Shown: one piece after another, positions 5,372 to 53,445 of the stretch
Layout: each line of letters begins with the position of its first letter
Numbering within the stretch: the first letter of the stretch is position 1
Source: a bacterium
GTDB lineage: Bacteria > JADJOY01
Assembly: GCA_046331705.1 (NCBI GenBank)
Contig: JAXLQJ010000029.1
Coordinates: forward strand, 1 to 64,000
Length of the DNA: 64,000 nt
Direction: 5' to 3'
The notes under the pieces: model-generated
What the model was told of the DNA's origin: nothing
The model's database searches: none
Seen by the model: only the letters and a program-made list of their open reading frames with translations
Made by a program: the position numbers and the translations under genes

Positions 5372-7891
5372 TCAGCGGCCAGCCATCGCGACCTGCGAGC
5401 TGCCCGCACCGGAGGCCGACCCCATCGCCGCCAAGCGCGCGGCGCGCAGCCCGTCGAACTCACGACGCTCGCGGCCCGTCAACACCCGTCCGCCGGTGAC
5501 GCTGACTCGCAGCGGATCGACGAATTGATCGTTCTTGAGGAAGGCGAAGTGCAGGTGCGGGCCCGTCGAGAGGCCCGTCGAGCCGGTGAAGCCGATCACC
5601 TGCCCACGCTTGACCTTCTTCCCTTCGCGGATGCCGGGGGCGATCGCGGAAAGGTGGCTGAAGGCCGTGGCGTAGGTCGCATCGTGACGGACCTTCAGGT
5701 AGCGACCATCGCCACCGGCTCGCCAGCCGGCGTACTCGACGATGCCATCCCCCACCGAATGGATCGGCGTGCCGGGAGCCGCCGCCAGATCGACGCCGAG
5801 ATGCGGCCGCTCGTAGCCCAGAATCGGGTGATAGCGCCCCATCGAGAACGGAGAGTTGACCTTCGTCACGTCGAGCGGACTCTTGAGGAAGGGGCGGCGC
5901 GCGGTGCGTCCCTGATCGTTGTAGTACTCGGGACGCCCATCGCTCGAGCTCACCAAGAACGCCCGGTGCGGCTCGCGCCCGGTCATGATCTCCGCGGCGA
6001 GGACCCGCCCCCGGCGCGCTCCACCCTTGGGGGCATCCAGCAACACCCGGAAACGGTCACCGCGATCGACGTCGCTCTTGAGATCGATCTCGCCCGCGAA
6101 GATGGACGCGATCTCGCCAATCGTCGCCGCGTCGAGACCGGCGCTCACGGCCGATTGGTAGAAGCTCGTCTGCACCTGCCCGGACACGACCGAGAGCTGC
6201 GGCGCCAGCTGGGGGTCCGCCTTCGCAACGGCACGCGATGCAGCGCCGTCGACGTCCGCGCTCGGCTTCGGAGCGGGCGCCGCGGCTGCGGTTCGCGTCG
6301 GGCCAGCTGCATCCTTCGTCGACTCGAGAGCGACCGCGGTCGCGAGCTTCACCACCACCGGCGAGGTCCCCGGCGTCCGCACGATCCGAACCTCGGACGT
6401 TCGTCCGGTGGTGCGGTCGACGATCATCTGGACGCGGGCGCCGGTCTTCGCCGTGCGTACGTTCCACTTCCGCCCGATCGCCGCGGACACCTTGCCGACG
6501 TCCGCCGCACGCACGCCCAGCTCGTCGAGCAGCTGGCCGACCGTCTCGCCGCGCGCCAGCACCGCTTCGCGAACGAGTGGATCCGGCGCCACGGTCGCCT
6601 TGGCGGTTGCGGTGTCTGCCTTGGCCGATGGCGACTGCCGCACGTCCTCGATCCCGGCACCCGCGATCCGGATCCCGTCTGGAAGCGCGACCTCGATCGC
6701 CCTCGCCCCCTGGGGCGGTCGGACGATCACCTGGGACGCCTCACCGCTCGCCGGGTCCACCGCGACCTGGACGAGGGTGCCGATCTGGGCGCGCCGCAGG
6801 TTCCATTTCCCGTTCAGCGCCGACACCACCCGGGGAACGTCGTCACGGGCAACACCGACCTGGCCGAGCACCCCCGCGATCGAGCCGCCCTTCGCCAAGG
6901 TCGCCGCGCGAACGATGTTCGGCGCCGCGCTCTTGGCGGCGGTGCGGGTGGCGGCCACGGGCGACTCGGACGCCTTCTCGGCGTTCGCGGGTACCGCGTT
7001 TCGCGGCGGGTCCGCGAGCGCGACGTCGATCCGCGGCGAATCCGGGCGCGACTCGACGATCGAGACCGCGCTCGGAGCCGCGCTGTCGGCCTCGAAGGTG
7101 AGCGAAACCTGGGTCCCGACGTCCGCGCGACGCACGTTCCACTGCTTCACGACGCGGCTCGACACACGCGCCCGCTGAGCGGAGGCGAGGCCCAAGCGCG
7201 CCAGCACCTTGTCGAAGCTGTCGCCGCGGCGGAAGGTCTCCGTGCGCACCACGGTGGGACGGCTCGCCGCCGACGCCGCGGGCTCGGCCGGCACCGCGAT
7301 CGTCGCGTTCGTCGCGTTCGTGTCGCTCGCCTCGGTCTCGTTCGGGGTCACGACGGGCTGAGCGACCGACGACGAGTCGACGGGAACGACCCGCGACACG
7401 TAGCCGTCCGCGGCACGGCTCACTTCCACACGGCGATCATCGTCCGTCTCGATCGCGAGGCCCTGGACGGCGCCGGTGGCCGGGTCGAGCGTGACCTCGA
7501 CCTGCGAGCCGACCTGAGCCTTCCGGACGTCCCAGCGTTCGGTGACGCTGTCCATCAGCCGCGCCACGTCCTGGCGCGCCACGTCGAAATCGCTCAGCAC
7601 GCCGGCGACGGTCTCGCCACGCGCGATCGTGTGGGTGCGCGGTACGACGCGGGAGGGATCCCCTGGGCCACCGGAGCCGCGCGAATCGGCGCGAGCGCCG
7701 TAGGCCGTGGCATCGATTCCGGCCGGCGCACCAGCGCGGGCGCGGGTCGGCGGACGGGCAGAGGAGGGCAAGGTGACGAGCGTCGTGACGAGCGCGACCG
7801 CCAGCAAGATGCCGAGGTAGCGGCGCAACGACGACGACGCCGGGCTTCGCTCGCGGGAGATCGAGTCGTCCCGAATCATCATCTCGATCAA
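5372..7891 (-). CDS. M23-family murein DD-endopeptidase (MepM-like) with four repeated N-terminal modules
   Basis: C-terminal HLGVD and STGPHLHF zinc motifs; N-terminal hydrophobic anchor; start TTG 7891 (AAGGAG SD) or ATG 7882. Confidence 0.85.
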   Translation of the reverse strand: MIEMMIRDDSISRERSPASSSLRRYLGILLAVALVTTLVTLPSSARPPTRARAGAPAGIDATAYGARADSRGSGGPGDPSRVVPRTHTIARGETVAGVLSDFDVARQDVARLMDSVTERWDVRKAQVGSQVEVTLDPATGAVQGLAIETDDDRRVEVSRAADGYVSRVVPVDSSSVAQPVVTPNETEASDTNATNATIAVPAEPAASAASRPTVVRTETFRRGDSFDKVLARLGLASAQRARVSSRVVKQWNVRRADVGTQVSLTFEADSAAPSAVSIVESRPDSPRIDVALADPPRNAVPANAEKASESPVAATRTAAKSAAPNIVRAATLAKGGSIAGVLGQVGVARDDVPRVVSALNGKWNLRRAQIGTLVQVAVDPASGEASQVIVRPPQGARAIEVALPDGIRIAGAGIEDVRQSPSAKADTATAKATVAPDPLVREAVLARGETVGQLLDELGVRAADVGKVSAAIGRKWNVRTAKTGARVQMIVDRTTGRTSEVRIVRTPGTSPVVVKLATAVALESTKDAAGPTRTAAAAPAPKPSADVDGAASRAVAKADPQLAPQLSVVSGQVQTSFYQSAVSAGLDAATIGEIASIFAGEIDLKSDVDRGDRFRVLLDAPKGGARRGRVLAAEIMTGREPHRAFLVSSSDGRPEYYNDQGRTARRPFLKSPLDVTKVNSPFSMGRYHPILGYERPHLGVDLAAAPGTPIHSVGDGIVEYAGWRAGGDGRYLKVRHDATYATAFSHLSAIAPGIREGKKVKRGQVIGFTGSTGLSTGPHLHFAFLKNDQFVDPLRVSVTGGRVLTGRERREFDGLRAARLAAMGSASGAGSSQVAMAGR

Positions 7892-7953
7892 GATATTGTG
7901 CTCCTTGGGGGAATCACACACTATATCTTGTGCTGCACTGGATATCGTCGGGA

Positions 7954-7983
7954 ATAATAGGTGAGACTGTCGCCGAATGTCAA
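7954..7983 (-). promoter_or_regulatory. sigma70-like promoter for the M23 gene (TTGACA-N18-TATTAT)
   Basis: Near-consensus hexamers in an AT-rich intergenic stretch. Confidence 0.6.
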
Positions 7984-8096
7984 CGCAAAAGTGGTTGAAA
8001 ACCGAACGACTGTGTCCAGCCGGACACGCCGGATAGCTGGCTTTCGACGATGGTGTCAACCCCGAGCTTGCGGCGTCGACCCATATACTTGCGATC

Positions 8097-8534
8097 ATGA
8101 AGGTGCTCGGAGTCGACGTCGGGAAGAAGCGCGTCGGTCTGGCGATCAGCGACGGCGAGGCCCGAATTGCGTTCCCGCTCACCACGATCCAGGTGCGCGG
8201 CGGGCTGCGTCAGACGATCCAGGAGGTTCGGCGCTGGATCGAGAGCGAGCGCGTCGGGCTCGTGGTCGTCGGGCTTCCGCTCGCGATGGACGGAAGCCAG
8301 GGCGCCGCGGCGCGTCACGCCACCGCCTTCGCCGCCAGCGTGACCGCCGAGCTCGGCATTCCCGTGCGCACCTGGGACGAGCGGTTCTCCACGCGGGAAG
8401 CCGAGCGCACCTTGCTCGAGGCCGACCTGCGCCGCGATCGCCGTCGCGAGGTCATCGATCAGGTGGCCGCGACCCTGATCCTCCAGACGTTCCTCGACGC
8501 GGAGGCGTCACGGTCGAGAAGCGGGCGTGACTGA
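8097..8534 (+). CDS. ruvX: RuvX/YqgF pre-16S rRNA nuclease
   Basis: LGVDVGKKRVGLAISD, VVGLP, WDERFST, IDQVAATLILQ. Confidence 0.94.
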   Translation: MKVLGVDVGKKRVGLAISDGEARIAFPLTTIQVRGGLRQTIQEVRRWIESERVGLVVVGLPLAMDGSQGAAARHATAFAASVTAELGIPVRTWDERFSTREAERTLLEADLRRDRRREVIDQVAATLILQTFLDAEASRSRSGRD

Positions 8535-9603
8535 GCCATCCAACCACGCGGCCGTGCAGACGCGATCCATCCCGCGATCGCGGCGGCGGCGGATCGCGGC
8601 ATGGGCGGTGCTGCTCGCGCTCGGGCTCGTGACCGGCGGCGGTGCGGGTGCATACGGCTGGGTCGAGCGCTGGCTCGATCGCCCCACCCGCGCGGGGGCG
8701 CCCACCCAAGTCTTCGCGGCGCGCAAGGGGCGATCGGTGGGACAGATCGCGCGCGATCTGGCGGCGGCGGGGCTGGTCTCGCACCCCCGACTCTTCGCGC
8801 TGGTGGCCCGCCACCAGAACGTGGACACGCGCATCCATTCCGGGGAGTACGAGCTCTCCGCGAACCTCACTCCCCGCCAGATCCTGCGGCGCCTGGCCGA
8901 GGGCAACGTGCTGCAGGTCTGGGTCACGCTGCCGGAGGGCCTCACCCGCCGAGAGGTGGCCCACGCCATCGCGGCCACCGGGCTGGCGGACGAGCAGGAG
9001 CTGCTGCGCGCCACGGCCGATGCGCGGCTGGTCGCCGGCGTCGACCCGGAGAGTGCCGACCTCGAGGGCTACCTGTTCCCCGATACCTATCGCTTCCCGC
9101 GCGGGATCACCACCGACGCCATCGTTCGCACACTGGTGGAGCGGTTCCGCCAAGTGGCTGGCGAGGTCCTCACACCCCACCTCGCGCGACGCGGGCTGAC
9201 CCTCCGCCAAGCGGTGACGCTGGCGTCGATCGTCGAGAAGGAGACGGGCCAGCGGGCGGAACGACCGCTCATCGCCGCCGTCTTCCTGAACCGCCTGGCG
9301 CGGGGAATGCGCCTCGAGAGCGATCCCACGGTGATCTACGGCATTCCCGATTTCGACGGGAATCTGACCCGGGCGCACCTTCGAGCGGCGACGCCCTACA
9401 ACACGTACGTCATTCCCGGGCTGCCGGCGGGACCGATCGCGAACCCGGGCGCCGAATCCTTGGCTGCGATCGCGACGCCGGCCGAGGTGCCCTACCTCTT
9501 CTTCGTCGCCAAGGGCGACGGCACCCACCAATTCTCGGAGACGCTCGTCGATCACGAGCGGGCGGTACGCAAGTACCAGCTCGGGCAAGCGGGCTCCCGC
9601 TGA
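8527..9603 (+). CDS. mltG: Endolytic transglycosylase MltG (YceG family)
   Basis: LEGYLFPDTY, LASIVEKET, LESDPTVIYG, PYNTY..GLPAGPIANPG, YLFFVA. Confidence 0.95.
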   Translation: MTEPSNHAAVQTRSIPRSRRRRIAAWAVLLALGLVTGGGAGAYGWVERWLDRPTRAGAPTQVFAARKGRSVGQIARDLAAAGLVSHPRLFALVARHQNVDTRIHSGEYELSANLTPRQILRRLAEGNVLQVWVTLPEGLTRREVAHAIAATGLADEQELLRATADARLVAGVDPESADLEGYLFPDTYRFPRGITTDAIVRTLVERFRQVAGEVLTPHLARRGLTLRQAVTLASIVEKETGQRAERPLIAAVFLNRLARGMRLESDPTVIYGIPDFDGNLTRAHLRAATPYNTYVIPGLPAGPIANPGAESLAAIATPAEVPYLFFVAKGDGTHQFSETLVDHERAVRKYQLGQAGSR

Positions 9604-30969: not shown

Positions 30970-31046
30970 TGGTCGGGGCGACTGGATTCGAACCAGCGAC
31001 CCCCTGCGCCCAAGGCAGGTGCGCTACCAGGCTGCGCTACGCCCCG
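30970..31046 (-). tRNA. tRNA-Pro(UGG)
   Basis: CGGGGCGTAGCGCAGCCTGGTAGCGCACCTGCCTTGGGCGCAGG...GGTTCGAATCC...CCCCGACCA, 77 nt with encoded CCA. Confidence 0.97.
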
Positions 31047-39733: not shown

Positions 39734-40114
39734 TCAGATGCCCATGCCCTGATCCACGAACGCGGCGGCCTCGTCGTCGGCGGGCGGCTCGGGCAACGCA
39801 CGCGTCGGGAACTCGATGTGGTGCTCCGCGCCAGCGGCGTCCGTCAGGATCCACTCGAGGCTCTTGCCCCGATAGCTCTTGACCACCAGCGACGTCTCGG
39901 CGCCCGTGACCCAGAACGGCATCTTCACCTCGAGGGCGAAGCGCGGGCACACCTTCACGCACGCATAGCAGCCCCAGCATTCCTTCACGTCGCGGATGCG
40001 CACCTCGTTGGTGCGGAAATCCTTCTCGATGACGTCACCCGGGCACACGCGTACGCACGGCGGCTCGGGCATGAGCCCACACGAGTTGCAGGCCTTGAGG
40101 TCGATCTCGATCAT
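39734..40114 (-). CDS. aprB: 4Fe-4S dicluster protein, APS reductase beta-subunit-like
   Basis: CNSC...CVRVCPGD and ECWGCYACVKVCP; directly downstream of the aprA-like gene. Confidence 0.7.
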   Translation of the reverse strand: MIEIDLKACNSCGLMPEPPCVRVCPGDVIEKDFRTNEVRIRDVKECWGCYACVKVCPRFALEVKMPFWVTGAETSLVVKSYRGKSLEWILTDAAGAEHHIEFPTRALPEPPADDEAAAFVDQGMGI

Positions 40115-40145
40115 GGGCGTGCCTCGGAATGAGTGCGCCGAGCGC

Positions 40146-41870
40146 TCAGCCGCCCGCGTGGGCGAAGCGCAGCTCGCTCGGCCCCTGGTGCGGCCGGCGC
40201 TCGACCCGCACCTCGCCAGTGTCGGCGTCGCGGCGGCTGACCAGGAAATAGAGCGGAGCGTCGGCGTCGGGCTCGGCGACGTCCACGCGGTGCTGGTAAC
40301 CGGGCCAGCGGCGCTCGTCGCGCGCCAGCAGATGCTCGACCAGCGCCCGCGCCACGTCGATGCGGTCGACCACCTCGTGGACCAGCATGAGCTGGTGCGC
40401 GTTGGACGCCTGCAGGTGATCGAGGTGGGAGCCGAGCGAGCGCAGCTCCTCGCGCGCCACCTCGAGGCGCTTCGGGTGGAGATCGAAGAACGTCGACGGC
40501 CCGCCGGCGTACTCGTCCATGATCCGCTGCAAGCGCCGGAGCACGTCCTCGTGGCTCAGGCCGACGCGACCGAGCAACCCGCGCCGGAGCGGCGCCAGCA
40601 CGCGCCGCATCTCTTCCTTCCAAGCCGAGCTTTCCGGCTCCTCGACCCGCGCACACTCGGCGAGCGCCGTGCGCGCCGCGATGCGCGCTTCCACCCACGC
40701 CCCGCTCACGTACTTCTTGGGTGCGCCGCCGGCGACGTCGCCGGCCGCATAGAGCCCAGGTAACGACGTGCGTCGATCGACGTCCACCCAGTAGCCCGCG
40801 GCCGTGTGGCCGCCCAGGAGATACGGTCCGGACGTCCCCATCTCGATCCGCAGCGGCCCCTCCTTGCCGGCGAGCGTGCCGAGATAGAGCAAGAGCGACG
40901 GCGCCATGTCGAGGTACGCCCGCGCCGCCTCGTCGACCTTCTCGGTGCGCAGGTGCGAGAGATCGAGGTAGATCGGGCCGCGCCCCGCGCGCAGCTCGTC
41001 CATCATCGCCGCGAGCTGTTGCGGCAACGTGGGCTTGCGCCCGCCGTCGTACCCCGCCCGCGCCTTCGCGAACTCCTCGCCCAGCGCGTTCACCTGCTTG
41101 GCGCCGAACGCCTGCACCAGCGTCCCCGTGGGCGCCTGCACGTGGCGCACGCGGGTGGGGATGAAGCGCATCTCGAGGGTGGTCAGCTCGGCGCCGGCGC
41201 GCAGCCCGACCGCGTAGCCGCTGCCGACGTTGTAGGGCGAGTACCAGAGCCGGCTCATCATCGAGCCGTCGGAGCGCGGCGGGTAGAGCCCGGCCGCGCC
41301 ACCGGTGGCGCAGATCACCGCGCCGGCCGACACCACCACCAGCTTGCCGGTCCGCACGTCCACGCCGAAGGCACCCGCGACACGGCCGTCGCGCACGATC
41401 AGGTTGGTGACCGCCACGCGATTGCGGACTCGCGCGCCCGAGGCGTAGACGCGCTCGGCAAGCACCAGCTTCAGCGACTCGCCGCGAATCTGGATGCTGC
41501 GCGGGCCCTTCGAGATCGGGTTGCCGTCGGCGTCGCGGTGGATCTGCATTCCCCACGACTCGACCAGATGAGTCGCCTCGTGGAGGCCCTGCGCGAAGCT
41601 CAGCACGAGGTCTTCGCGGACGAGCCCGTGGGAATCGCGACGCGTGCTCTCGAGGTAGCTCTCGGGGCTCTGGTCGGCGCGCAAGTAGGCATTGACGGCG
41701 TTGAGCCCCGCGGCCACGCAGCCGGAGCGCACGATGTCGGCCTTCTCGAGGATCAGCACGTCGCGGCTCGAATCGACGGCGCGCGCTTCCACCGCCGCCA
41801 TGCAACCGGCGGCTCCACCGCCGATCACCAGCAAGTCGGTGCGCAAGAACTCGGGTTTGGTATCGATCAT
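40146..41870 (-). CDS. aprA: Adenylylsulfate reductase alpha-subunit-like flavoprotein
   Basis: IGGGAAGC, EKADIVRSGCVAAG, ATGGAAG, WYSPYNVGSGY, EMRFIPTR..APTG, GGHTAAGYWV, RDERRWPG. Confidence 0.8.
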   Translation of the reverse strand: MIDTKPEFLRTDLLVIGGGAAGCMAAVEARAVDSSRDVLILEKADIVRSGCVAAGLNAVNAYLRADQSPESYLESTRRDSHGLVREDLVLSFAQGLHEATHLVESWGMQIHRDADGNPISKGPRSIQIRGESLKLVLAERVYASGARVRNRVAVTNLIVRDGRVAGAFGVDVRTGKLVVVSAGAVICATGGAAGLYPPRSDGSMMSRLWYSPYNVGSGYAVGLRAGAELTTLEMRFIPTRVRHVQAPTGTLVQAFGAKQVNALGEEFAKARAGYDGGRKPTLPQQLAAMMDELRAGRGPIYLDLSHLRTEKVDEAARAYLDMAPSLLLYLGTLAGKEGPLRIEMGTSGPYLLGGHTAAGYWVDVDRRTSLPGLYAAGDVAGGAPKKYVSGAWVEARIAARTALAECARVEEPESSAWKEEMRRVLAPLRRGLLGRVGLSHEDVLRRLQRIMDEYAGGPSTFFDLHPKRLEVAREELRSLGSHLDHLQASNAHQLMLVHEVVDRIDVARALVEHLLARDERRWPGYQHRVDVAEPDADAPLYFLVSRRDADTGEVRVERRPHQGPSELRFAHAGG

Positions 41871-41894
41871 GGCGTGAGCGGTGCGAGTACGAAG

Positions 41895-42344
41895 TCAGAT
41901 GTAGTACATGGGCGGGGTCGAGAGTCGCCGCTCGTCCTCGCAGAGCTGCGAGAGGCGCACCGAGCGGAGCAGCTCGCCGACCGTGGTGTCGACGCGTCCC
42001 CACAGCGCCGCGAGCGCGCGGCGCGGCGGCACCCGGCGGGTGGGCGCGGCGGTGCCGCCCGGGACGCACGAGAGCGAGTGGCTGCCGCCCTCGAGCGACT
42101 CGATCACGTCGTGGACGCTCAGCTCGCGCGGATCGTGCGCCACGATGTAACCGCCTGAGGGGCCGCGGGCGCTCCGAATCAGCCCGGCTTTGCGCAGCGT
42201 CACGAGCACCTGATCGAGGAAGGGCTTGGGAATGCGCGTGCGTTCCGCCAGCTCTCGGCTCGAAACAGGCGTATTCACGCCGGCTTGCGCGAGCTCCAGC
42301 ATTACGGCGAGACCGTATTCGATTCGCGCGGACACCCGCATCAT
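41895..42344 (-). CDS. Rrf2-family transcriptional regulator (CymR-like)
   Basis: YGLAVMLELA, IPKPFLDQVL, SARGPSGGY, VIESLEG; only one Cys, so not the IscR three-Cys type. Confidence 0.9.
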   Translation of the reverse strand: MMRVSARIEYGLAVMLELAQAGVNTPVSSRELAERTRIPKPFLDQVLVTLRKAGLIRSARGPSGGYIVAHDPRELSVHDVIESLEGGSHSLSCVPGGTAAPTRRVPPRRALAALWGRVDTTVGELLRSVRLSQLCEDERRLSTPPMYYI

Positions 42345-42527: not shown

Positions 42528-43871
42528 ATGCCGACCTTCAAGCACATCACGCTGCCCGACGGGGATCTCGTCGAGATCAAGAACGGTCGCCCCGCCACTC
42601 CCGACCGTCCGATCATCGGCGTCCTGCGGGGCGACGGCACGGGCATCGACATCACTCCCGTGATGCAGAAGGTCGTCGATGCGGCGGTGGCCAAGGCGTT
42701 CGGCGGCAAGCGCCAGATCGCCTGGTGCCCCATCTATGCCGGGCTCGAAGCATGGCAGCGCTACGGCGAGGTGCTGCCGCAAGAGGCGTGCGACGCGATC
42801 CGCCACCTCAAGATCGCCATCAAGGGACCGTTCACCACCCCCATCGGCGACGAGAAGTTCGTGTGCTTGCACTGCGCGCACCAGCAGAACACCCAGGCCA
42901 CCTGCGACGAGTGCGGCAAGACCGATGGCGTGACGCCGCGCTTTCGCTCCATCAACGTCGGCTTCCGGCAGGCGCTCGATCTCTACGCCTGCATCCGCCC
43001 CGTTCGCTACTTCAAGGGCGTCCCCGCGCCCAACAAATACGCCGACAAGGTGGATTTCGTGATCTTCCGCGAGAACACCGAGGACGTGTACGCGGGCCAC
43101 GACTTCGAGATGGGCGGCGAGGTCGCGAAGGCGGTCATCGAGCTGGTCCGCGAGCGCACCGGCAAGAAGATCCGCCTCGACAGCGGCATCGGCATCAAGC
43201 CGATCTCCGAGCACGGCTCCAAGCGGCTCGTTCGCTCCGCCATCCAATGGGCGATCGCGCAGAAGCTCCCGTCCGTGACCTTGGTGCACAAGGGCAACAT
43301 CATGAAGTTCACCGAGGGTGCCTTCTGCAAATGGGGCTACGAGGTGGGTGCCGAGGAATTCGGCGACCAGACCATCCCGGAGAAGAAGGTGTACGACGAT
43401 CACGGTGGCAAGGTCCCCGCGGGCAAGATCCTCATCAAGGACCGCATCGCCGACTCGATCTTTCAGCAGATCCAGACCCGCCCCGACGAGTACAGCGTGC
43501 TCGCGCTGACGAACCTGAACGGCGACTACCTCTCGGACGCAGCCGTCGCGCTCGTGGGCGGATTGGGGCTCGGCCCCGGCGCCAACATCGGCGACGACGC
43601 GGCGCTTTTCGAAGCCACCCACGGCACCGCGCCGAAATACGCCGGCAAGGACAAGGTGAACCCGGGCTCGATCATCCTCTCGGCCGTGATGATGCTCGAC
43701 CACATGGGCTGGCAGGACGCGAGCCGCCTGATCGTGAACGGCATCGAGCGCTCGATCCACGACGGCGTGGTCACGTACGACCTCGCGCGTCTGATGACTC
43801 GCGAAGGCCGCACCGACGTGAAAGAGCTCTCGTGCTCCGGCTTCGGCAACGCGATCATCGAGCGGATGTGA
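42528..43871 (+). CDS. icd: Isocitrate dehydrogenase (E. coli-type dimeric family) with a Cys4 insertion
   Basis: GDGTGIDI, IKGPFTTP, RSINV, FRENTEDVY, VHKGNIMKFTEG, NLNGDYLSD, EATHGTAPKY; AGGAG SD. Confidence 0.95.
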   Translation: MPTFKHITLPDGDLVEIKNGRPATPDRPIIGVLRGDGTGIDITPVMQKVVDAAVAKAFGGKRQIAWCPIYAGLEAWQRYGEVLPQEACDAIRHLKIAIKGPFTTPIGDEKFVCLHCAHQQNTQATCDECGKTDGVTPRFRSINVGFRQALDLYACIRPVRYFKGVPAPNKYADKVDFVIFRENTEDVYAGHDFEMGGEVAKAVIELVRERTGKKIRLDSGIGIKPISEHGSKRLVRSAIQWAIAQKLPSVTLVHKGNIMKFTEGAFCKWGYEVGAEEFGDQTIPEKKVYDDHGGKVPAGKILIKDRIADSIFQQIQTRPDEYSVLALTNLNGDYLSDAAVALVGGLGLGPGANIGDDAALFEATHGTAPKYAGKDKVNPGSIILSAVMMLDHMGWQDASRLIVNGIERSIHDGVVTYDLARLMTREGRTDVKELSCSGFGNAIIERM

Positions 43872-53358: not shown

Positions 53359-53445
53359 TGGTGCCGAGGAGGGGACTCGAACCCCTACAGGCTTTCACCC
53401 ACTAGGTCCTGAACCTAGCGCGTCTACCAATTCCGCCACCTCGGC
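53359..53445 (-). tRNA. tRNA-Leu(CAG)
   Basis: GCCGAGGTGGCGGAATTGGTAGACGCGCTAGGTTCAGGACCTAG, long variable arm, GGTTCGAGTCC, ends ACCA; 87 nt. Confidence 0.97.

Follow-up and report, generated by a model that had tools for sequence, protein, structure and literature searches.

Few enzymes of central metabolism have been studied as thoroughly as isocitrate dehydrogenase (IDH), whose phosphorylation loop serves in textbooks as the example of an active site controlled by phosphorylation. What role can a module with four cysteines have when it is set into the tip of that loop? This question is raised by an icd-type gene in a 64,000-nucleotide stretch of bacterial DNA (positions 1 to 64,000 of contig JAXLQJ010000029.1, assembly GCA_046331705.1, lineage JADJOY01), the whole of which is referred to here as the window. 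The product of the gene is an NADP-dependent IDH of type I in which an insert with the motif C113-x2-C116-x9-C126-x2-C129 occupies the loop tip, and this is a real and conserved new variant of a known enzyme. A metal-binding-type domain grafted into the phosphorylation loop in this way is found in 171 of 185,579 species-representative genomes, and it suggests that IDH can be shaped or controlled in a manner so far unrecognised. From the perspective of its function, the explanation that we prefer, at a probability close to even, is a structural Zn(Cys)4 flap that the phosphorylation loop carries at the active-site mouth and that acts in cis.

The insert, its conservation and its host enzyme

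Nucleotides 42849-42950 of the window correspond to DEKFVCLHCAHQQNTQATCDECGKTDGVTPRFRS, that is, to residues 108-141 of the protein, and both the peptide and the coordinates given for it in a preliminary description of this DNA are exact on translation. The phmmer alignment to E. coli IDH (1ai2) is split at the insert, with residues 10-107 of the query matched to residues 9-108 of the chain and residues 139-447 matched to 111-416. A stretch of 31 residues thus stands in place of two, a net gain of 29, which bears out the earlier count of about 29 extra residues. The normal codon bias that had been ascribed to the insert is also found, since G+C at third codon positions is 30/31 within it and 0.916 in the remaining gene (binomial p = 0.51). 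An AAGGAG motif precedes the start codon at 42528 by 8-13 nt. Shortly after the insert comes S141, at the position of E. coli S113, the serine that both binds substrate and is the site of regulation.

The conservation of the insert was followed at the level of proteins and of DNA. When 5.8 billion proteins were searched and only residues 96-146 were scored (E <= 0.001), at least 309 protein clusters were matched, and the 31-residue stretch with all four cysteines is present in 121/121 sequences, namely the query and the 120 listed of the 309 matches. With each of 185,579 species represented by a single genome, a pattern scan returned 187 stretches, 171 of which encode a relative; the best 80 of these 171 genome loci, together with the window, make up the 81 loci used for the DNA-level counts, and the 31-residue insert with its four cysteines is found in 81/81. 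Whether the insert and every cysteine are conserved across a clade had been posed as a check in the preliminary description, and these counts answer it in the affirmative. The same length and the same cysteines recur in all homologues compared, and the Cys4 run in the IDH loop is not a chance occurrence.

Among the 98 unique strings of the region, E109, V112, C113, L114, C116, Q119, Q120, C126, C129, D133 and R138 are invariant, as are R140 and S141 beyond the insert, while A117, H118, G130 and G134 are nearly so. Across 80 unique DNAs, whose loci range from 32 to 75% G+C, all synonymous codons of the invariant residues are in use (both TGC and TGT for the cysteines, six codons for L114, six for R138 and four for V112), and their conservation is therefore due to purifying selection and not to recent common descent. 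Two other cysteines were noted in the course of these comparisons: a fifth cysteine at position 136 (window 42933-42935) in 16/80 loci, and C67 (window 42726-42728) in 95% of the insert-bearing rows, a position at which plain IDHs have Met, Leu or Lys.

Further features private to the clade emerge when the 74 insert rows of a 92-row alignment are set against its 17 plain rows, the one remaining row falling in neither group. The micro-insert E426-G427-R428 is present in 95-100% of the insert rows and is a gap in 15-16 of the 17 plain ones; it would adjoin the NADP 2'-phosphate site. Q316, two residues before the equivalent of R292, is clade-specific as well, and the other private residues are F102, N169, A172, D192, R216, W241 and the C67 already mentioned.

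The host enzyme was claimed in the preliminary description to be otherwise intact, and the catalytic, substrate and NADP residues can indeed all be aligned to 1ai2. A Pfam scan of the 447-residue protein found PF00180 (261 bits) as its sole domain and no flavin-type converter domain. The score against NF005425, 530.2 bits, passes the cut-off of 490, and that against TIGR00183, 566.6, is marginally below the cut-off of 567.3, since the match is broken in two by the insert; the insert thus lowers one annotation score to just under its threshold, and some database records name the insert-bearing protein only as a generic family dehydrogenase. In a phmmer search of all PDB chains, E. coli IDH is matched at E = 3.5e-136 with 51-52% identity. 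The equivalents of E. coli S113, N115, R119, R129, R153, Y160, K230, D283, D307 and D311, which serve isocitrate and Mg2+ binding and catalysis, are all identical in the 1ai2 alignment, and this set is nearly invariant in the 92-row alignment. Identical too are K370, Y371, Y417, R421 and R318, which correspond to E. coli K344, Y345, Y391, R395 and R292 (R292'), the determinants of NADP+ specificity.

Structure prediction leads to the same picture of the host. A full-length AlphaFold2 model built on the 92-row alignment has a mean predicted local distance difference test score (pLDDT) of 93 and a predicted template modelling score (pTM) of 0.91. Foldseek places this model closest to 1iso and 1cw1 (E = 2.7e-53, TMt 0.92), with TMt of 0.89-0.93 to the IDH structures of E. 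coli, A. fulgidus and B. subtilis. A homodimer predicted from two copies with two Zn and two NADP reaches an ipSAE of 0.88 against 0.00 for the best control, with a contact agreement between runs of at least 96% and a partner pLDDT of at least 92; the ipSAE mark is reached by 20/30 proteins solved as same-chain pairs and by 1/23 solved as single chains, and the pass may reflect likeness to solved IDH dimers and not new binding. The predicted dimer appears to use the canonical clasp interface. By its aligned residues and its model, the protein would be a functional NADP-isocitrate dehydrogenase, homodimeric and of the E. coli type. The coordinates of the insert, of its gene and of the other features of the window are collected in Table 1.

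Table 1. Positions of the insert-bearing gene, its parts and other annotated features in the window
Feature	Position	Strand	Description
icd-type gene	42528..43871	+	ATG start; 447-aa type-I (E. coli-like) NADP-isocitrate dehydrogenase with insert
Insert D108-R138	42849..42941	+	31 residues; in place of Gly-Gly at the phosphorylation-loop tip
First knuckle C113-L-H-C116	42864..42875	+	Followed by near-invariant A117-H118 and invariant Q119-Q120 (nt 42876-42887)
Second knuckle C126-D-E-C129	42903..42914	+	Followed by near-invariant G130, invariant D133 and near-invariant G134
R140-S141	42945..42950	+	Equivalent to E. coli R112-S113; two residues past the insert
Micro-insert E426-G427-R428	43803..43811	+	Clade-specific; five residues after R421 (E. 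coli R395)
Rrf2 regulator	41895-42344	-	PF02082, 104 bits; divergent from the IDH gene
AprA-like flavoprotein	40146-41870	-	NF005331, 612 bits (cut-off 557); TIGR02061 aprA, 342 (cut-off 642)
AprB-like 2x[4Fe-4S] ferredoxin	39734-40114	-	TIGR02060 aprB, 51.6 bits (cut-off 135.65)
Ankyrin-repeat protein, 440 aa	43964-45286	-	Downstream of the IDH gene; C-terminal Ank_2, 82.5 bits
tRNA gene	30973-31046	-	Rfam RF00005, 65.5 bits
tRNA gene	53362-53445	-	Rfam RF00005, 59.1 bits

Origin and carriers of the variant

The insert-bearing IDHs form one clade with a single derived origin. In a tree computed without the insert, one branch (SH-aLRT 100, length 1.55) separates 75 insert rows from the 17 plain rows, this being a quick tree whose insert rows were chosen through the insert search. 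Within a library of representatives at 50% identity, the cysteine motif occurs in only three of the best 150 of 11,133 matches; one of these carriers is full-length at 62% identity, the other two are fragments, and the next matches, at 55% identity, have the plain loop. No variant with 10, 13 or 14 residues between the knuckles occurs among these 150. Much longer IDHs, of 589 and 776 residues, were also seen among the plain-loop representatives. The 776-residue protein continues for about 350 residues after the IDH domain, and to the eye, by its letters alone, this part looked to be of the lactate/malate-dehydrogenase type.

All carriers among the best 80 loci are metagenome bins. According to the bin labels, 32 of the 80 belong to Gemmatimonadota, 12 to Acidobacteriota, nine to Myxococcota or 'Deltaproteobacteria', eight to Planctomycetota, four to Eisenbacteria, two to the Fibrobacter group, and one each to Krumholzibacteriia, Hydrogenedentota and Pseudomonadota, with ten loci lacking a group label. 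The carriers are thus patchily spread over bins labelled to at least eight phyla. A FastTree phylogeny of the 73 of 81 sequences that have at least 430 residues (the eight truncated ones being left out and branch supports not shown) interleaves these phyla, and the insert-bearing gene appears to have moved between them. In one carrier's phylum the insert was found in 5/151 sampled genomes. Within the small family to which the window belongs it is present in four of the five other genomes, one of these copies being cut by a contig end, and among more distant sampled genomes in 1/35. The lineage of the window itself looks isolated, with only those five other genomes, in two genera, in its family.

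The insert-bearing IDH is the only Iso_dh match of type-I length in 5/5 chromosome-level carrier genomes, and two shorter Iso_dh paralogues classified from such genomes fall below every NCBIfam cut-off. The genome of the window has two further Iso_dh genes, LeuB and a 335-residue NAD-IDH-like protein that is below all cut-offs, and a monomeric IDH was not found in it. The 335-residue protein (positions 1486-2493 of its locus, minus strand) has a plain loop, KGPLTTPIGKGFKSINV, and its best match is the isocitrate dehydrogenase model NF006529, at 444.7 bits against a cut-off of 510. Either an NAD-IDH or a homoisocitrate dehydrogenase may be encoded here, and the insert-bearing enzyme is perhaps not the sole IDH of the cell.

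Two kinds of irregular locus were seen among the carriers. At the locus from CP070716.1, a Gemmatimonadota chromosome, the IDH encoded by frame 7704-8648 of the locus stops 213 residues past the loop motif, compared with 349 at the other loci, and a frameshift, an error of assembly or decay to a pseudogene may account for the early stop. At three loci the IDH is preceded by very long open frames, and fusion forms of the enzyme were considered for these loci and rejected; they contain no Pfam domain beyond Iso_dh, and the long frames are best treated as putative open reading through G+C-rich DNA.

The solved type-I NADP-IDHs (1ai2, 3icd, 1iso, 2iv0, 5m2e and 1hqs) share with the window protein the fold and the catalytic, substrate and NADP residues, but they have Gly-Gly where it has the Cys4 module, and the E-G-R insert and the private substitutions set it further apart. 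Among the 79 distinct PDB sequences matched, all of them of the ordinary IDH family, no chain has the insert, and the best three alignments break at 107/139. No published description of an IDH with a module of cysteines or zinc was found among reports judged mostly by their titles and the openings of their abstracts. The insert-bearing IDH is apparently undescribed, which may be because all of the carriers among the best 80 loci are metagenome bins.

Fold and possible roles of the module

Block means of pLDDT across the insert are 83-92 in the full-length model, where strands 111-113 and 135-137 form a stalk and a further strand is predicted at about 119-120. When a 58-residue segment was folded alone (16 rows), the same strands were kept at pLDDT 76-84, with a mean of 68 for the model. 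The structure prediction proposed in the preliminary description therefore gives a small beta knuckle, modelled with confidence. Foldseek on the lone module ranks the rubredoxin-like domain of LapB first, with rubredoxins and the ribosomal and MCM zinc ribbons, all of them weak matches (E >= 0.13); LapB (4zlh, 7wzb) superposes with an rmsd of 1.2-1.6 A over 31-33 columns at a Foldseek probability of 0.92-0.99. Each of these domains has two CxxC knuckles, as the insert does, but they are terminal or free-standing and share 18-30% identity, whereas the IDH module is set into a loop. The metal-binding mini-domain that had been proposed for the insert is the natural reading of the four cysteines, the beta knuckle and these weak ribbon neighbours; the zinc itself we infer. 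The four cysteines probably bind one Zn2+ as a structural ion, and the insert would work like a zinc ribbon placed outside any curated ribbon family.

A short ribbon of comparable pattern was seen in an unrelated setting. A 486-residue pentapeptide-repeat protein with a C-terminal membrane segment, from a distant genome (positions 1180-2640 of its locus, minus strand), carries VCPWCGYQQDTKQHCEKCGKP, with the pattern C..C..QQ.....C.KCGK, and the insert profile matches it at 23.8 bits over profile positions 17-39 only. By its pattern the IDH insert resembles such generic, free-living short zinc ribbons, and this one may hint at the source of the insert.

The analysis shows the insert, its conservation, its single clade origin, the intact catalytic set and the confidently predicted fold; metal binding, zinc as the metal, the placement of the flap as a lid, and any effect on catalysis we infer. 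In the preferred explanation, the floppy Gly-Gly tip of the phosphorylation loop would have been replaced by a rubredoxin-like or zinc-ribbon knuckle, and the zinc-stapled module would stand on a short stalk of two strands as a rigid flap, at the entrance of the active-site cleft and on the side of the large domain. On closure of the cleft, the flap would dock in cis over the bound cofactor and substrate, much as the zinc lid of some adenylate kinases does, and this docking would tune closure and kinetics with no kinase signal being transmitted. Action in cis is suggested by the conserved polar face (H118, Q119, Q120 and D133), by the stalk residues E109 and R138, and by the co-occurrence of E426-G427-R428. 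The location is in keeping with what is reported of the loop itself: it is situated close to the active site, lacks order in the apo form of S. tokodaii IDH and mediates the contact of NADP+ with isocitrate (PMC6313988), and it is one of the variable regions of dimeric IDHs (PMC3521221).

Two known systems help to delimit this proposal. In adenylate kinases a Cys4 zinc lid is one of three alternative lid types, some lineages being metal-free, and the likeness lies in a four-cysteine metal knuckle within a mobile part of the enzyme that shuts over an active site to which a nucleotide binds (PMC11526920). The enzyme and its fold are unrelated, however, and the adenylate kinase lid has catalytic arginines and an experimentally established role, whereas for the IDH the role of a lid is a proposal. 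IDHs of the B. subtilis type have a helical hairpin, likewise lineage-specific and near the active-site cleft, which alters access and stops AceK from acting (PMC3521221); it lies in an ARS-like region (E. coli 239-275), is metal-free, and does not involve the phosphorylation loop.

Several observations weigh against the cis-acting zinc flap. The isolated module has no Foldseek match at E <= 0.001, and no Pfam zinc-ribbon family exceeds its cut-off, the best being Stc1, zf-CHY and Zn_ribbon_6 (E = 0.04-0.07) at 15.0, 14.8 and 13.6 bits against cut-offs of 24.8, 31.3 and 25, so that membership of such a family was rejected. Predicted zinc fingers of the C(P)XCG type are reported not always to be zinc-binding (PMC11241148). 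In the predicted homodimer the base of the insert (residues 104, 106, 108, 141 and 144) contacts the other subunit, but no residue of 109-138 is named in the confident interface, an unnamed residue being no evidence that contact is absent. Moreover, the invariant polar patch would fit a site for a partner molecule equally well. The insert had also been considered as a part of the dimer interface, and this was rejected, base residue 108 alone being named among the confident contacts.

A link to phosphorylation by AceK had been suggested in the preliminary description, in which the insert was thought to block it, and this has no target here. AceK (PF06315) has no match in the genome of the window (8.17 Mb, 95.67% complete) and was found in 0/5 chromosome-level carrier genomes. 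The same family matches 1/14 control genomes, that of E. coli, and its absence from carriers therefore says nothing specific about the insert. Covariation of the insert with aceK is moot for the same reasons, as AceK is in no carrier examined and is rare in the controls. The invariance of S141 at the S113 position does not bear on phosphorylation, the same serine binding substrate in all IDHs, and the protein is not an AceK-regulated IDH. Isocitrate lyase (PF00463) has no match in the genome either, which at 95.67% completeness does not prove its absence, and no glyoxylate branch point is visible because the lyase was not found.

If there is control, then, it must be of another kind, and this is one argument for a labile Zn(Cys)4 site that acts as a switch for redox state or zinc availability, in which oxidants or zinc starvation would release the metal, and its loss would disorder the loop of S141 or lock it by disulfides and so turn NADPH production up or down. 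Such a switch would act, with no kinase, on the same loop that is phosphorylated in E. coli. Tetrathiolate zinc sites serve as redox sensors in Hsp33 and RsrA, and the position of the module suits such a role, with four invariant thiolates two residues from the substrate-binding serine of an enzyme that is a source of NADPH; the clade-specific C67 and the occasional C136, at the frequencies given above, could also bear on it. Against this, the Cys4 ribbons of enzymes mostly have a structural role alone, a labile and an inert zinc site look alike in sequence, the carriers include bins labelled Thermoanaerobaculia, and there is no conserved neighbouring thiol-redox gene. We regard a labile site of this sort as unlikely. 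Rather unlikely, too, is its fullest form, a reversible thiolate-zinc switch in the catalytic loop by which oxidative stress or zinc status would gate the output of NADPH and 2-oxoglutarate without any kinase. If true, it would be a self-contained counterpart of AceK control on a gene that moves between uncultured phyla.

The module may instead be a passive stabiliser, a knuckle that stiffens the loop, adds stability (to heat or proteolysis, for example), leaves regulation and kinetics as they were, and is kept since its removal would misfold the loop. Medium-chain alcohol dehydrogenases have a structural zinc lobe that has been gained and lost. Comparable lobes are variably present in other families of dehydrogenases (PMC9895041). 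The patchy distribution of the insert, down to 5/151 sampled genomes in one phylum, would be consistent with this. A stiffener, however, would hardly need the conserved polar residues that are not ligands (H118, Q119, Q120, D133 and R138), kept across all synonymous codons, and the stem branch of 1.55 together with the many clade-specific substitutions points to co-adaptation of the whole enzyme, which makes passive stabilisation improbable.

The same polar residues, of a solvent-exposed type and placed on a small surface module, could form a handle by which another macromolecule docks at the active-site mouth, such as a regulator protein, a neighbouring enzyme of the tricarboxylic acid cycle or of nitrogen assimilation, or a nucleic acid. 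Zinc ribbons often mediate contacts with proteins or nucleic acids, and ribosomal and MCM ribbons are among the structures that most resemble the module. The module may also be free to bind, being unnamed in the predicted dimer interface, with the reservation already made that an unnamed residue is no proof of no contact. Yet no adjoining gene is conserved (the best flanking cluster reaches 9/81 loci), no candidate partner emerged, and the apparent movement of the gene between phyla would be harder if a co-adapted partner were needed, so that docking to a partner is quite improbable. Finally, a rubredoxin-like Fe(Cys)4 centre that passes electrons to or from the nicotinamide site is hardly credible, for although rubredoxins are among the nearest structural neighbours and their CxxC...CxxCG knuckles resemble those of the insert, only PF00180 was found in the protein, with no flavin or other hydride-to-electron converter, no redox-partner gene is conserved nearby, and the spacing of nine residues between the knuckles is far shorter than in rubredoxins.

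Genomic neighbourhood of the gene

The preliminary description had also connected the insert-bearing gene with a sulfur locus. The divergent Rrf2, AprA-like and AprB-like genes are indeed present, in an operon-like run (39734-42344, minus strand) that encodes an APS-reductase-like pair of uncertain substrate, but this context is common to only 4/81 loci, and the link does not extend beyond them. To compare the neighbourhoods, all stop-to-stop frames with 130 residues or more within 4 kb of the IDH gene in the 81 loci were run against one another by blastp, frames overlapping the IDH itself being excluded. No flanking cluster occurs in more than 9/81 loci, and a conserved gene neighbourhood was rejected.

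Around the IDH gene there are no sigma-70-like promoters, and terminator-like sites are no commoner than in shuffles; the 183-nt intergenic region contains only two short inverted repeats. The first 280 or so residues of the downstream ankyrin-repeat protein match no Pfam family at E <= 0.001. In the window as a whole, the two tRNA genes are the only matches at the Rfam gathering level.

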